From a candidate division WOR-3 bacterium (GTDB lineage Bacteria; SDB-A), in NCBI GenBank assembly GCA_016934535.1, contig JAFGSQ010000062.1:1-36946 (forward strand): DNA of 36,946 nucleotides, given 5' to 3'. The position numbers were made by a program, and so were the translations under genes. Every line of letters starts with the position of its first letter. Position 1 is the stretch's first letter. Below the pieces are notes generated by a model. The model did no database searches. It was given only the letters and a program-made list of their open reading frames with translations, and had not been told where the DNA came from. Positions 14,273 through 22,589 of this stretch are shown here, in pieces.

Positions 14273-15124
14273 TTAAAGAGAAATTCTCGCTCCGAGCGAT
14301 AAAATCCATTTTTCCCCAGTCATTCCGAATTCCGCGTCCGCGCTCAAAAGGGGAAACAATGAAATCTCTGTTCCGGTTCTCCATACAAAACTTTTTACGT
14401 ATTTTTTTACGGAACCCCGCGAAAAAGCCGTTACGTGCGGGTCGCCGGATGCCGGATAAATGCTGAATTCGCCGTTTATGTCAGACAAATTGATCCCGAC
14501 TCCAAAATACGGGCACAAATAAAAAAGCCTTTTCGAGACGTCTATAAATACTGAAACAGCTTCCGGTTTAACCGAGACTTCGAAAGTAGTGTCCGCGGCT
14601 GACCTCGGTAATGAAAAAAGATCTATCTCGGACGATTTCGTATATACTGCGGTCAATGAAGCATCCGGGAAAAGAAGCCCTCCTTGAATTACACCAACCT
14701 TTATTCCGGCGGAATAATAAGGTACAATTGATCCGCTTTTTCCTGATCCGACGGCTCCCGGCACAACAACCACTCCGTATCTTCCGACAAGTGCCGTTTT
14801 AAAAAAAGTCACGCCCGACATCGGCATGTGCCGTCCGTTCCAAATTCCGATCTGAATCTCACCGTGAATCGAAGGGACTCCCAAATTATAGGACGAACCT
14901 TCCGAAATCGGATTCTCAATTTCAAATCTGACCATACTGGCGCCGGCGCTGGCGGAAAAATGCCCGAATCCAGGTGTTTTGCCCGTCGAAAGACCATAAC
15001 CTGCGACCAAAGCGCCAAACGGAGTTGAAGCATTTTCGAGCGAATGTACGACTTCATCGGTAAGAGAAGCGAAACAAGATGTAATGAACATAAAAAAAAG
15101 CGCTGTCATCATTGAAATTTTCAA
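14273..15124 (-). CDS. Exported hypothetical protein, probable outer-membrane beta-barrel
   Basis: TTG start with AAGGAG; signal peptide; alternating beta-strand pattern; C-terminal strand LSLGARISL. Confidence 0.55.
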   Translation of the reverse strand: MKISMMTALFFMFITSCFASLTDEVVHSLENASTPFGALVAGYGLSTGKTPGFGHFSASAGASMVRFEIENPISEGSSYNLGVPSIHGEIQIGIWNGRHMPMSGVTFFKTALVGRYGVVVVPGAVGSGKSGSIVPYYSAGIKVGVIQGGLLFPDASLTAVYTKSSEIDLFSLPRSAADTTFEVSVKPEAVSVFIDVSKRLFYLCPYFGVGINLSDINGEFSIYPASGDPHVTAFSRGSVKKYVKSFVWRTGTEISLFPLLSADAEFGMTGEKWILSLGARISL

Positions 15125-15896: not shown

Positions 15897-17125
15897 TGAG
15901 CGTAATAGTCTTTTTAGCTTTGGCTTCAGGTTTTATAGTCGCCTTTGCCATTGGGGCTAACGACGTAGCAAATTCGATGGCAACCGCCGTCGGAGCAAAA
16001 GCTATTACAATAAAACAGGCAGTACTTATCGCCGCAGTATTAGAGTTTTCCGGTGCTTTCTTCTTCGGTAAAATGGTCACCGAGACCATCTGCAAGGGGA
16101 TAGTTCCGATGACAAATTTCAGCAGTCCTGAAATCCTTATCGCGGGTGCTTTTGCCGCCATATTGGCTTCGGCAATTTTCATTTTAGCCGCGACCAGATT
16201 CGACATGCCGATATCTACAACGCATTCCATTATTGGAGGACTGATTGGATTCGGCCTCGTCGCCGGAGGAGTTAAGTCGGTAAGCTGGATGAAAGTTCTC
16301 GTCATTGTATTTTCCTGGATAATTTCCCCCGTCCTCGGAGCGATACTTTCCTACACGGTCTTCAAGATTCTTTCAATAATCATTTTGAGAAAGGACGACC
16401 CATTCAACTGGACAAAAAAAACCGCTCCGTTCATCATCGGATTCACATTTCTGACCATATCTTGGCTTTTCACCGTCAAAACTCTCTCAAAAGGTGTTTT
16501 GTTCGCATTTGTCACGGCTTTACTCATCGCGATTACAACGACGATTTTAAGTTTTCTTTTATTGAGAATCGTCAAATTCGAAAAAAACGAAGAGTATTCG
16601 GTCGAAAAAATATTTCGCAAGATGCAAATACTCACATCCTGTTATGTATCTTTCGCACACGGAGCAAATGACGTCGCGAACGCCATAGGGCCGATAGCTA
16701 TAATATTGATGGTCGCAAAATCAGGAGTTATCGCCTGTTCACTCCCCGTGACAGTCGATAAATCCATTCTAGCGCTTGGAGGAATAGGAATCGCCCTCGG
16801 AGTCGCTCTGCTCGGATACAGAGTAATGCGGACAATAGGAGAAAAGATTACATCCCTCAACAACACAAGGGGTTTTACAATAGATATTTCAGTCGCGACA
16901 TCAGTCATTATAGCTTCGTTTTTTGGATTGCCAGTATCGTCAACGCACACTGTGGTCGGAGCGGTCGTCGGAGTCGGATACGCCAGAGGATTCGGGGCGG
17001 TTAATTTTGGAATCATAAGAAGGATACTTATCTCCTGGCTCCTGACAGTTCCAGCCGCGGCTTTGCTTTCTGCGCTGTTATACAAACTGCTGCTGTTGAA
17101 TTTGATAACAAAATTGTTGCTTTGA
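15896..17125 (+). CDS. pit: PiT-family inorganic phosphate transporter
   Basis: Two GANDVAN signatures, PISTTH and PVSSTH, and many TM helices. Confidence 0.96.
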   Translation: MSVIVFLALASGFIVAFAIGANDVANSMATAVGAKAITIKQAVLIAAVLEFSGAFFFGKMVTETICKGIVPMTNFSSPEILIAGAFAAILASAIFILAATRFDMPISTTHSIIGGLIGFGLVAGGVKSVSWMKVLVIVFSWIISPVLGAILSYTVFKILSIIILRKDDPFNWTKKTAPFIIGFTFLTISWLFTVKTLSKGVLFAFVTALLIAITTTILSFLLLRIVKFEKNEEYSVEKIFRKMQILTSCYVSFAHGANDVANAIGPIAIILMVAKSGVIACSLPVTVDKSILALGGIGIALGVALLGYRVMRTIGEKITSLNNTRGFTIDISVATSVIIASFFGLPVSSTHTVVGAVVGVGYARGFGAVNFGIIRRILISWLLTVPAAALLSALLYKLLLLNLITKLLL

Positions 17126-18328: not shown

Positions 18329-18363
18329 GAAAACCGGAATAAAAAACTCAAAACGGAGGTAAA

Positions 18364-19470
18364 ATGAACAATTCGTACCTTTTTGAAAAACCTATAGGAG
18401 GCTTGATCGGACTCACCGATTTTACGGACAGATGGCAAGTCACCCTGGATTCTTTCAACAAAAAGAATTTCAGGGAAACTGTAATAAATTTCCTGAATTA
18501 CCTGGACCCTGAAGTTGTAAAAAAACACGGAAATAAAAATAAAGACGAATTCGACATTCCCCACGGTTCCATTGTCATAAAACTTAAACTCACCGACAAA
18601 GAACTGGATATAAACGCCCCGTTTTTGAGTGTACCTGAGAAAAAAGTAAACGCCTTGCTCAGGCAGATCGCAGAAATAAACTTCTCAGTTCTTTTTTTAA
18701 CTCAAATCGTCCTTGAAGAAGACAAGCTGTTTTTCAGGATAAAACTTCCCCTTGAATTGTGTGAGCCTTATAAACTTTACGACATTCTTTATGAAATATG
18801 CATTAACGCTGATCATTACGACGACCTCTTCATAGAAAAATTTCAGACTCAGAGGATATACACTCCAAAATTCACTCGCTATTCCGACAAGGAACTCAAG
18901 GATTATTTCGAAAAGTTCAAACTGCATGTTAAGGAAAGTCTTGATTTTCTTACATATTTCAAAGAAAAAAGATGGTTCGACATCGGAGTTGAATCTGCAC
19001 TCATTTCGATGATGAAATTAGATTACATTTTTTCTCTTCAGGGGTTTTTGAGAACAGAAATAGAAAAAGCAATAAATGAATCCTACGCAAAAATCCCCCC
19101 GGCAGAAAAATTGGAACACGCGTACAGTTTTTTTGAAAACCTTGGATCAATTTCATATGAAAAATTCGCAGATTCAACGTACAAAACTGAGTTCTTAATT
19201 TCTGTGAGAAAACACGCCACTTTGCCAGTTGTCAAAAAACAACTTGAAAATTACTACAACAACGCTGAAAAAGACATGGCTTCTTCTGCGCACTTGAGCG
19301 CAGTTATATTCCTTCTTTACGACATATACAATTTATACTACAGGTTTCTTGTTCCTAAAAACATAGAAGAAACACTTAATCAAGGTTTGAAAAATTCTTC
19401 GGGAAAAGATTGGAAAACAGCCGCTGAAGAACTTTTCAAATCGATGACAAAAGTAATGAATTCTCAGTAA
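18364..19470 (+). CDS. Uncharacterised protein: YbjN/T3SS-chaperone-like domain plus an alpha-helical C-terminal region
   Basis: GGAGG RBS. Residues ~60-160 (IPHGSIVI...APFLSVP...ADHYDDLFIEKF) parallel the C-terminal domain of the next gene. The fold call is pattern-based. Confidence 0.6.
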   Translation: MNNSYLFEKPIGGLIGLTDFTDRWQVTLDSFNKKNFRETVINFLNYLDPEVVKKHGNKNKDEFDIPHGSIVIKLKLTDKELDINAPFLSVPEKKVNALLRQIAEINFSVLFLTQIVLEEDKLFFRIKLPLELCEPYKLYDILYEICINADHYDDLFIEKFQTQRIYTPKFTRYSDKELKDYFEKFKLHVKESLDFLTYFKEKRWFDIGVESALISMMKLDYIFSLQGFLRTEIEKAINESYAKIPPAEKLEHAYSFFENLGSISYEKFADSTYKTEFLISVRKHATLPVVKKQLENYYNNAEKDMASSAHLSAVIFLLYDIYNLYYRFLVPKNIEETLNQGLKNSSGKDWKTAAEELFKSMTKVMNSQ

Positions 19471-19485
19471 TCTACGGAGGAAAAA

Positions 19486-20574
19486 ATGGCAGACATAAAT
19501 GAAATCTTCAATCTGGTTTATAAAATCAAGACTTCAAAAGGAAGCGGATCAGGGTTCTTTTCAAAAAAGCACGGTGTAATAATAACGAATCACCACGTGA
19601 TTGACGGAGAGAGAGAAGTCTCTGTCGAAAATTCCGACAAAAAGCCTTTCAAAGCCGATGTCATTCTAATCTCTCCGAAATACGACCTCGCTTTTCTCAA
19701 GCCTTCGCGCGAAATTCCGTCTCCTGAAATCAATTTTTCAAGTACCGGAAATCTTAAAAATATGGACAAGGTTCTAGTTCTCGGCTATCCGTTCGGTTTT
19801 CCTTTCACGGTAACAGAAGGGATAATCTCTAACATGAATCAACTAGTCAACGGTCAATGCTACATACAGACAGACGCCGCGATAAATCCCGGCAACAGCG
19901 GCGGACCAATGGTTTTACCGGAAGGTAAAATAATCGGGATCACTACTTGCAAATTCAAAGAAGCTGAAAACATGGGTTTTTCACTCCCGGCGGACATCAT
20001 TATGAAAGAGCTCGAGGTTTTTGAAAAGAAAATGCCCCATAAGTATTCGGTCAAATGCCCGTCGTGCAGTTTCCTGCTTGAACAGGAAGACGAATACTGT
20101 GAAAATTGCGGCGCCAAGCTTGACGCGAAAAAACTGTTCGGCAAAACTCCGATGAGCGCTTTATCATTGTTTATAGAAAAAACAATTCAAACAATGGGAA
20201 TAGATCCGATCCTCGCGAGAAACGGCTATGAATTCTGGGAATTTCACAAAGGCAGCGCTCTTTTGAGGATATTCGTCTACAGAACAAATTACCTGATAGC
20301 AACCTGCCCTCTTGTCAAACTGCCCCAGGAAAATCTCACGGAGTTATACAAATACATACTCAGCAATCCGGCGCTTCCATTTTATCTCGGAGTTGACAAA
20401 GGAATTATATACGTATCTTACAGAATTCATCTCACCGACATCAATTCAAGTTTTTCGGAAAAAATAATGAAAAACATCCTGGAAATATCTTTGAAAGCCG
20501 ACGAACTGGACAATTATCTCATCGAAAAATTCGGCTGCGTTTTGTCTGACGAAGCGGACAAGACGGCGGTATGA
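19486..20574 (+). CDS. Cytoplasmic trypsin-like (S1C/HtrA-type) serine protease with a zinc ribbon and a C-terminal YbjN-like domain
   Basis: Triad motifs GSGF, TNHHV, YDLAFL and QTDAAINPGNSGGP; CPSC...CENC; no signal peptide, TM helix or PDZ domain. Confidence 0.88.
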   Translation: MADINEIFNLVYKIKTSKGSGSGFFSKKHGVIITNHHVIDGEREVSVENSDKKPFKADVILISPKYDLAFLKPSREIPSPEINFSSTGNLKNMDKVLVLGYPFGFPFTVTEGIISNMNQLVNGQCYIQTDAAINPGNSGGPMVLPEGKIIGITTCKFKEAENMGFSLPADIIMKELEVFEKKMPHKYSVKCPSCSFLLEQEDEYCENCGAKLDAKKLFGKTPMSALSLFIEKTIQTMGIDPILARNGYEFWEFHKGSALLRIFVYRTNYLIATCPLVKLPQENLTELYKYILSNPALPFYLGVDKGIIYVSYRIHLTDINSSFSEKIMKNILEISLKADELDNYLIEKFGCVLSDEADKTAV

Positions 20575-20575
20575 A

Positions 20576-20848
20576 ATGCCTCAGATATTTGAAGGGGTCA
20601 TGCTTGTCTGTTTCGGCTCAGCTTGGCCGTTTTCCATTTGGAAATCGTTCTCGTCCAAAAATAACGAAGGGAAAAGCCTCCCTTTCCTTTGGATAATTTT
20701 TATCGGATATCTTTGCGGGATAACTCACAAGATACTGGCAGTGCCGGACAAAATTACGTTTCTTTACGCGTTAAATGCTCTTATGGTCCTGACCGATATC
20801 ACTCTTTTTTACAGGAACAGAACCTTTGCAAACAAAAGCGCGGCGTGA
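20576..20848 (+). CDS. SemiSWEET/PQ-loop-like small membrane protein (3 TM)
   Basis: 90 aa with three hydrophobic segments and a WPxSIxKSxxSKxxxGKS pattern; starts 1 nt after the protease stop. Confidence 0.7.
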   Translation: MPQIFEGVMLVCFGSAWPFSIWKSFSSKNNEGKSLPFLWIIFIGYLCGITHKILAVPDKITFLYALNALMVLTDITLFYRNRTFANKSAA

Positions 20849-21946: not shown

Positions 21947-21975
21947 ATAATATCAGAAATTGAGGGATTTTTCAA
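21947..21975 (-). promoter_or_regulatory. Sigma70-type promoter of argF
   Basis: TTGAAA (21975-21970), 17 nt, TATTAT (21952-21947) with an extended -10 TG. Confidence 0.6.
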
Positions 21976-22049
21976 CCCTTGAAAAAAAGATTTTTCTTTT
22001 TGCACTTTCAAGTATAATAGCTTTGCAAGCGGATTGGAAAAAGAAAAAA

Positions 22050-22589
22050 ATGACTGGATTTACAAAAAATTTCACAAATCATAAGCATCTTGCAGCGACA
22101 ATATTATTTGTTGTGTCCCTGCCGGCTCATGCAATAACATCTGATTTGCCAGCTGAGGAACCGGAATTCGTATACAAAAGAGTTTTCCCATATAACATCG
22201 CCTTGACGTATAACGAAAAAATCGGAATAAATGCTGAGATAAATCTTTATATTCCTAGAACAGTCAAACTCTCGTGGCCGTATATAGTCAATTACAGTAT
22301 AATGGACGGACCATTCCTCTCAATAAATGCAGGGTATAGAGCCGCGGGTATTGGCCTTGGATACGGCTTATTTACAAGATCTTTGGGCACGACAGGAACC
22401 AATTTAGCCGTCAAACTTCTTTACTCATACGGCTTATCCGAGCACATCGTAATGCATTCGTACTACTTGAATACCGAACTGGAATCTATCGTCATGTTCT
22501 TTTGTTTCGAAGCAGGTCATTTAAAACGCATCAATAGCCGGGAAGAGACGAGAAACCTGTTTTATTTCGGCTGTGGCATAAAATTGTAA
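22050..22589 (+). CDS. Exported hypothetical protein, possible small outer-membrane beta-barrel
   Basis: Probable start ATG 22050, downstream of TATAAT at 22013; signal peptide ending AHA; beta-strand pattern; C-terminal FYFGCGIKL. Confidence 0.5.
   Translation: MTGFTKNFTNHKHLAATILFVVSLPAHAITSDLPAEEPEFVYKRVFPYNIALTYNEKIGINAEINLYIPRTVKLSWPYIVNYSIMDGPFLSINAGYRAAGIGLGYGLFTRSLGTTGTNLAVKLLYSYGLSEHIVMHSYYLNTELESIVMFFCFEAGHLKRINSREETRNLFYFGCGIKL

Follow-up and report, generated by a model that had tools for sequence, protein, structure and literature searches.

A two-gene module of an apparently cytoplasmic, PDZ-less HtrA-type protease and a partner protein with a related chaperone-like domain

What is encoded by the gene pair in the middle of contig JAFGSQ010000062.1 from a candidate division WOR-3 bacterium (GTDB lineage Bacteria; SDB-A)? 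Our window, the whole stretch of DNA analysed here, comprises positions 1 to 36,946 of this contig on the forward strand (36,946 nucleotides; NCBI GenBank assembly GCA_016934535.1), and the pair consists of a partner gene followed, on the same strand and after a gap of 15 nucleotides (19471-19485), by a gene for a protease of the HtrA type (Table 1). A preliminary description, made from the letters of the sequence, had proposed an undescribed protease switch at this place, and its account of two co-oriented genes, 15 nucleotides apart and each preceded by acGGAGG, is correct in coordinates and description. The term undescribed also holds for the searched literature, as a full-text search, with subscription journals and supplements outside its scope, returned no publication on the protease-partner pair. 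Our analysis characterizes the module as an HtrA-type protease with a putative new regulatory module and a seemingly obligate partner, the function of which is predicted from sequence profiles and structural models.

Domain anatomy of the protease and its partner

The N-terminal half of the protease has the chymotrypsin fold of the HtrA family (MEROPS S1C: DegP, DegQ, DegS, AlgW, MucD, HtrA1/2). Trypsin_2 matches residues 21-152 with an E value of 3.6e-26, and the corresponding half of an AlphaFold2 model built with 35 family members (predicted local distance difference test, pLDDT, 91.7; predicted template modelling score, pTM, 0.87) retrieves DegQ, DegP, DegS, HtrA1-3, MucD and AlgW in Foldseek at E values of about 1e-15 to 1e-16. 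Shared with this family are the protease fold, the motifs TNxHV, DLA and GNSGGP, and the His/Asp/Ser triad, whose members His37, Asp67 and Ser138 (the last in NPGNSGGP) are invariant across an alignment of 35 family members. The match does not extend beyond the catalytic domain: all 12 HtrA-type NCBIfam models (Do/HtrA/DegS/MucD-type) stay below their cutoffs, with their matches limited to residues ~15-181, and TIGR02037, the Do-family model, scores 150.6 bits against a cutoff of 416.2, covering residues 15-181 only. In the ribbon that follows, Cys191, Cys205 and Cys208 are invariant and Cys194 is nearly so across the same 35 members, and the models Zn_Ribbon_1, DZR and Zn_ribbon_3 match residues 190-212 weakly (E 1e-3 to 5e-3), below their gathering thresholds.

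HtrA proteases are envelope quality-control enzymes gated by PDZ domains. Unlike these, the window protease is devoid of a signal peptide, a membrane anchor and a PDZ domain, has a zinc ribbon and a putative TY-chaperone domain, and comes with an obligate partner gene. No PDZ model matched the whole protease at E <= 1, nor residues 216-362 at E <= 10. The maximum 19-residue Kyte-Doolittle mean is 1.29 in the partner and 1.42 in the protease, and the protease's N-terminus, MADINEIFNLVYKIKTSKGSG, is not hydrophobic, as is also true of the partner; because of this low hydropathy and the non-hydrophobic N-termini we assign neither protein a signal peptide or membrane helix, a call made from hydropathy and N-terminal reading. 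The intact HtrA-like triad, the CxxC-CxxC ribbon and the absence of both an export signal and a PDZ domain, all of which had been noted in the preliminary description, are thereby borne out, and the enzyme is, by its sequence, apparently an active, cytoplasmic HtrA-type protease that lacks PDZ domains.

The partner starts with a conserved N-terminal tail (residues 1-33) that lies outside the fold; W24 is invariant therein, and residues 11-20 form a stretch of lower confidence in the model (mean pLDDT 66). Its C-terminal half is conserved as well. Residues 172-368 have no Pfam family and no atlas match above 0.76, and in a VIA search with the whole partner model this helical half returned generic four-helix-bundle matches only (Z <= 7). 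At E <= 0.001 the partner has 68 homologues, some of which their source records call 'YbjN domain-containing' or label a 'type III secretion system chaperone'.

Between tail and helices lies the TY-chaperone domain of the partner, a fold of about 130 residues. Its AlphaFold2 model (pLDDT 91.7) finds 2plg as the best Foldseek match (E 6e-4), together with SigE, VecA, SycN-YscB, CesT, SicP, YbjN and AmyR. In the VIA search of the partner model against structure representatives, residues 34-161 match 20 chains of class I chaperones of type III secretion systems (T3SS) and of the YbjN family at Z 7.6-12.6, 19 of them at Z >= 9, and the next, unrelated rows had Z <= 7. In VIA-align, VecA reaches a Z of 12.6 with a root-mean-square deviation (rmsd) of 2.6 Å over 121 residues, followed at 12.2 by 2plg and by the T3SS class I chaperone heterodimer SycN-YscB (PDB 1xkp; rmsd 2.5 Å over 118 residues to 1xkp_C). 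The best Pfam match of the partner domain is TY-Chap1 (PF22551), at E 2.3e-5 and 24.5 bits against a cutoff of 27; for residues 216-362 of the protease, CesT (PF05932) gives 12 bits against a cutoff of 22 (E 0.24). Some relatives do exceed the TY-Chap1 cutoff, namely P0129, P0147 and P0185, which carry PF22551, and P0334, with 39.3 bits.

Is the C-terminal domain of the protease related to that of the partner? The full-length family profiles align partner residues 47-174 to protease residues 239-362 in hhalign, with a probability of 59.7 % and an E value of 8.9e-5. With profiles of the domains, A4 for partner residues 1-172 (32 sequences) and A3 for protease residues 216-362 (36 sequences), the probability is 92.7 % and the E value 4.4e-7 over 106 columns, and this alignment pairs FDIPHGS with WEFHKGS, APFLSVPEKK with CPLVKLPQEN, and ADHYDDLFIEKF with ADELDNYLIEKF, the same three stretches that the preliminary description had aligned by eye. 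Furthermore, both domain profiles match one single PDB sequence, 2plg_A (Tll0839), at E 1.4e-5 for the protease domain and 6.4e-5 for the partner domain, and the A3 hidden Markov model directly matches the N-terminal domain of six partner open reading frames (ORFs; E 5e-9 to 5e-6). Because of the hhalign result, the common match to 2plg_A and these direct matches, the similarity is well beyond chance, and on such profile evidence the two domains are homologous. In the protease model, the C-terminal domain consists of a helix, three strands, a helix, two strands and a long helix, which is the order of elements in the partner domain. The earlier assignment of a YbjN/chaperone-like domain to both proteins is upheld by the common 2plg_A match and by the fold matches of the partner.

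Relative to known proteins with this fold, the window pair is set apart by its architecture. The closest solved sequence relative of both domains is 2plg, and YbjN (6vu7), AmyR and DR1245 are among the fold matches of the partner domain; these proteins, in contrast, are free-standing, have about 150 residues with no enzyme joined to them, and their functions are poorly defined. The same contrast applies to the T3SS class I chaperones, in that the window domains sit in larger proteins, one of them joined to an enzyme. TY-Chap1 itself was defined in ADP-ribose-centred conflict systems, and domains of this kind were proposed there to bind peptides (Iyer, Burroughs, Aravind and co-workers, Viruses 2022, PMC9503650). 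The text considered from that paper contains no trypsin/HtrA fusion and no partner of the window kind; in further distinction from the TY-Chap1 systems, the window proteins score below the gathering cutoff, and no ADP-ribose-processing genes stand beside the pair in the examined loci.

Table 1. Features of the partner-protease pair (window coordinates)
Feature	Position	Strand	Basis or detail
Partner ribosome-binding site, acGGAGG	18353..18359	+	4 nucleotides before ATG; read from sequence
Partner gene	18364..19470	+	ORF, 368 amino acids; N-terminal tail, TY-chaperone domain, C-terminal all-helical domain
TY-chaperone fold alpha-beta3-alpha-beta2-alpha, partner residues 34-161	18463..18846	+	VIA-align, Foldseek, Pfam
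Conserved helical domain, partner residues 172-368	18877..19467	+	Helices only in model
Protease ribosome-binding site, acGGAGG	19474..19480	+	5 nucleotides before ATG; read from sequence
Protease gene	19486..20574	+	ORF, 362 amino acids; HtrA-type protease domain, zinc ribbon, predicted TY-chaperone domain
Chymotrypsin-fold HtrA-like domain, protease residues 1-182	19486..20031	+	Trypsin_2, Foldseek, triad
Catalytic codons of the protease gene	His37 19594-19596; Asp67 19684-19686; Ser138 19897-19899	+	
CxxC...CxxC zinc ribbon, protease residues 188-212	20047..20121	+	Weak zinc-ribbon models and conserved Cys
Predicted TY-chaperone domain, protease residues 216-362	20131..20571	+	hhalign, 2plg_A profile match, model element order

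Co-inheritance and distribution of the pair

With E <= 0.001 as threshold, the protease is matched by at least 7627 proteins, of which many may have just the protease domain in common with it; the best 120 listed homologues have 339-377 residues and are 46-100 % identical over 90-100 % of the query. The pair was followed from both sides, in a partner-centred scan with one genome per species (155 relatives, 80 loci kept) and in a protease-centred scan that used the C-terminal domain as query (218 relatives, 80 loci kept). In the partner-centred set, 65 of the 80 loci have the protease directly downstream of the partner and in the same orientation; among the remaining 15, five offer little or no downstream DNA, and ten, all labelled Bacteroidota-type, have unrelated genes there. 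Conversely, the partner lies directly upstream in 71 of the 80 protease-centred loci, two lack room for it, and seven are non-adjacent, five of which come from the same assemblies as the partner-alone loci, as judged by record names. Where the genes are adjacent, their order is always partner before protease. Whole-genome searches of five of the ten partner-alone cases located the protease type on another contig every time. In the family that includes a Maribacter genome, the partner profile matches 10 of 151 genomes and the protease-domain profile (E <= 1e-20) exactly the same ten, on the same contig and strand and about 1.3 kb away, which is to be taken as a pattern and not as a statistic, since related genomes are not independent. 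Protease and partner are thus strictly co-inherited, as a two-gene module whose members co-occur almost without exception, and the co-occurrence of homologues, which the preliminary description had named as a check on its proposal, is found from either side.

The module is clearly accessory and patchy. The genome of the window has one copy of the partner. In the small phylum to which it belongs, the partner is present in four of six genomes, that is, in all four of the window genus and in neither of the two from other genera, and in its own family it is confined to one of three genera. By their labels, carriers are found in Bacteroidota, Leptospiraceae and other Spirochaetota, relatives of Fermentibacter/Hyd24-12, Peregrinibacteria, Omnitrophota, Myxococcales and others. 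Among them are cultured organisms (Maribacter sp., Allomuricauda sp., [Muricauda] lutisoli, Aureibaculum marinum, Aureibaculum luteum and Fulvivirga kasyanovii), and since such carriers exist in Flavobacteriia and Cytophagia, the module is directly testable.

A clustering of all ORFs in the 80 partner-centred loci revealed no third gene common across phyla. The next commonest neighbour is a LuxR-type response-regulator-like gene of 197-272 amino acids, which is found in 24 loci (among them L015, L021 and L027) in divergent orientation, about 750 nucleotides upstream of the partner. All of these loci carry the label Chitinophagales, Saprospirales, Sphingobacteriales or unclassified Bacteroidota/Bacteroidetes, and the gene may represent lineage synteny or a local regulator. 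The remaining neighbours are lineage-specific housekeeping genes.

Natural fusions and the predicted heterodimer

An exhaustive search with the A3 profile returned 350 representative proteins at E <= 0.001, of which 130 reach E <= 1e-10 and 42 reach E <= 1e-30, and which reveal the domain in several further settings. In two of these proteins the whole partner is followed by the protease-type domain in a single chain: P0237 (521 amino acids; A1 profile, residues 1-370, E 5e-98; A3, E 1.8e-32), with three cluster members on three contigs, and P0251 (537 amino acids; A1 residues 1-357, E 1.6e-88; A3, E 1.1e-32), a singleton. Both fusions are devoid of a protease domain and of a ribbon. No protease gene stands beside the P0237 locus, which belongs to an assembly of an uncultured Alistipes, and in this 1.9 Mb genome the protease profile A2 finds only the fusion itself. 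In the 521-residue fusion at L172:1818-3383 (uncultured Alistipes), conserved motifs of the partner family are altered, with HGQ for HGS and DKYHH for ADxYDD, which suggests, from the sequence of this protein, a protease-less derivative.

Other architectures join the domain to different neighbours. Protease, ribbon and domain are followed by TPR arrays in P0204 (548 amino acids, 8 members), P0207 (870 amino acids) and P0225 (840 amino acids), and none of these extended forms is among the 139 strong domain matches in the collected loci. TIR_2 is fused to the protease-type domain in P0334 (306 amino acids; A3, E 4.5e-18) and P0337 (294 amino acids; A3, E 6.3e-18), which are 45 % identical to each other and are each found on one short contig. 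A scan of genome contigs with P0334 returned seven loci with matches to the TIR part only and with no A1, A3 or A4 profile match, and a metagenome scan returned three weak TIR-only loci. The combination of DUF1993, ribbon and domain in P0194 is possibly an assembly artefact, since it was seen once. Free-standing proteins of about 150 amino acids with the A3 domain match TY-Chap1 or CesT_Tir_1, and there are four matches of 125-150 amino acids to the C-terminal domain of the protease that are possibly fragments. A free-standing ORF of 151 amino acids that matches the A3 profile (E 2.4e-6) was observed at L042:4212-4664 and L118:1334-1786; in one Cytophagaceae-labelled contig, such an ORF is situated upstream of the partner gene, at a distance of a few hundred bases.

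Do the two homologous domains bind each other? Complex predictions were run three times with an alignment of each domain as input, and were accompanied by three controls. The domains are predicted to form a complex with an ipSAE of 0.85 (0.84-0.85 over the runs), the best of the controls reaching 0.01; among solved complexes 116 of 157 attained that mark, and among mismatched pairs 2 of 215, counts that are rough because the input alignments were our own. Between the runs, 100 % of the contacts agree, and the partner chain has a pLDDT of at least 86. The predicted interface, formed by partner residues 95-140 and protease residues 265-323, takes in the middle helix of either domain together with the strands next to it, and many of the invariant or nearly invariant residues of both families lie within these stretches. 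In T3SS chaperones, the face made by helix alpha2 and the strands is the canonical dimer face. Judging from the complex prediction and the natural fusions, a heterodimer through the shared domain is likely. The earlier proposal that the shared domain mediates heterodimerization is thus supported, as a prediction, by the model and by the partner/protease-domain fusions.

That partner and protease do not bind, with a homodimer formed by either chaperone-like domain and the operon shared through one pathway, is very unlikely in our estimate. Among T3SS class I chaperones and YbjN proteins homodimers predominate, and the complex prediction could reflect a general propensity of the fold to dimerize. 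However, such an arrangement sits poorly with the identical presence and absence of both genes across the 151 genomes, with natural fusions that place both domains in one chain, and with the distance between the heterodimer score and its controls.

Instead of an adaptor, the partner could be a regulated substrate or inhibitor, much like an antitoxin or an anti-sigma factor, which blocks the enzyme via the shared domain up to its own degradation. The invariable upstream position of the partner gene and the direct contact in the predicted complex would agree with this, and the conserved tail with W24 and its lower-confidence residues 11-20 could be a pseudo-substrate. Yet genes on different contigs in at least five genomes that keep both would be unusual for a toxin-antidote pair, and a natural fusion of partner and domain is devoid of any protease. 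We consider a role of this kind rather improbable.

Genomic context and possible physiological role

What can be discerned from the surroundings of the module about its role? In the window the pair is flanked by housekeeping genes, for PhoU-like/PiT phosphate transport, DJ-1/PfpI, thiamin pyrophosphokinase and ornithine carbamoyltransferase. Between positions 17000 and 21500, scans for promoters and terminators yielded counts near those of shuffled sequence (9 against 8.3 and 9 against 4.7), and the ends of the operon are not defined by them. A hydrophobic ORF of 90 amino acids without a Pfam family (20576-20848, plus strand; N-terminus MPQIF) begins 2 nucleotides past the stop codon of the protease gene; it was considered as a third component and rejected, because it is confined to the closest relative, L001 (69 % identity). 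Elsewhere in the window, two ORFs of 283 amino acids (14273-15124, minus strand) and 209 amino acids (21960-22589, plus strand) each start with a signal-peptide-like N-terminus and match no Pfam family at E <= 0.001. A role in type III or other secretion was likewise rejected, because no secretion genes were seen beside the pair in the examined loci (no search aimed at T3SS was made) and a cytoplasmic location is predicted for either protein.

The preliminary description had also raised an enrichment of the module in defence islands. Against PADLOC-DB 2.0, the protease is matched in its protease domain only (RT-Protease_XI, LmuA, PDC-M35A, PDC-S45), the best match of the partner is AbiEi at E 0.036, and no PADLOC model matches either window protein over its full length. 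Among 127 flanking proteins from 32 diverse loci, up to two on each side, no PADLOC match was found in the four flanking genes of 27 loci; the other five have defence-like neighbours, which are AbiEi/AbiEii (L062), an OLD/Gabija-like ATPase (L025), a mad3-like ATPase (L010), a Cas4-like nuclease (L005) and a SoFic fragment (L002), and no background rate stands behind these counts. At L062:3278-4794 (minus strand), on a contig labelled Deltaproteobacteria, the complete AbiEi/AbiEii pair is the immediate upstream neighbour of the module (PADLOC E 1.8e-40 and 9.6e-92). Because 27 of the 32 loci lack a defence-like neighbour and the window flanks are housekeeping genes, and with no third gene recurring across phyla, residence in defence islands is not supported.

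A conflict function could nevertheless be imagined, as an anti-phage or abortive-infection system in which the platform formed by the chaperone-like domains senses a foreign or unfolded segment and unleashes the protease or, in relatives, a TIR NADase. The protease-type domain is joined to TIR_2 in two independent proteins, P0334 and P0337; the protease domain resembles the RT-protease, LmuA and PDC candidates of PADLOC at the domain level; the module is distributed patchily across phyla with one copy per genome; and defence-like genes do neighbour it in the five loci named above. In addition, TY-Chap1 was defined in conflict systems (PMC9503650). On the other hand, no PADLOC model spans either whole protein, most loci are free of defence matches, a conserved third component is missing, and the TIR fusions each stem from a single short contig. 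We think a conflict role unlikely, and keep it as a minority reading on account of the fusions with TIR and of TY-Chap1 having its origin in conflict systems.

Somewhat better than even, in our judgement, are the chances of a two-protein cytoplasmic protease complex, in which a platform of paired TY-chaperone domains gates an HtrA-type protease. In this scenario, an enzyme of the HtrA type would have lost its signal peptide and PDZ domain, and a zinc ribbon and a peptide-binding TY-chaperone domain would stand in their place. The TY-chaperone domains of protease and partner would pair via the chaperone dimer face, with alpha2 and the adjoining strands, and the resulting asymmetric heterodimer, similar to SycN-YscB, would be tethered to the protease. 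Such a platform could take over the part of the PDZ domain by holding an extended segment of the client, and would thereby select substrates for, or gate, an ATP-independent proteolysis, with the helical domain of the partner as the adaptor or sensor end. Physiologically, this would amount to an accessory, single-copy and horizontally spread module for regulated intracellular proteolysis.

Several points weigh against this gated-protease scenario. BLASTP of the partner against the protease does not detect the shared domain, its best hit (E 0.095) being in a different region, and the probability for the full-length profiles stays at just the 59.7 % given above. For the C-terminal domain of the protease, the TY-chaperone fold is a prediction from sequence profiles and the order of elements in the model. 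Many T3SS chaperone dimers have solved structures, and the complex score may reflect likeness to these; moreover, it sets the heterodimer against the three controls, and implies no preference over homodimers. As the genes are non-adjacent in 10 of the 80 partner loci, tight translational coupling is not required, and as the Alistipes fusion occurs without a protease, the chaperone-like pair can persist without the enzyme. The patchy distribution makes an accessory or conflict role fit at least as well as general quality control. Finally, the binding of client peptides and the gating by the platform would follow by analogy, from the T3SS chaperones and the PDZ-gated HtrA proteases.

If the two domains do form a platform, its use might be broader than in the window pair. 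It is conceivable, if quite doubtful, that the TY-chaperone heterodimer is a general and swappable sensor platform, on which a new class of prokaryotic effectors of immunity or stress is built. The partner and the effector-borne domain would together grip an unfolded stretch in a foreign or damaged protein, and so switch on whichever enzyme is joined to the domain. The HtrA-type protease would then be the effector in most lineages and a TIR NADase in others, TPR arrays would be added in some, and the enzyme would have been lost in fusions of the Alistipes type.

For the HtrA family, the pair characterized here represents a broadly distributed form that is apparently cytoplasmic, in which the PDZ domain appears to be replaced by a domain of the secretion-chaperone type, and which has an obligate partner. 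If the heterodimer model is true, the module would provide a second, independent route to substrate selectivity for an ATP-independent protease, and would assign to the YbjN/TY-chaperone superfamily, which is poorly understood, a concrete biochemical task other than secretion.

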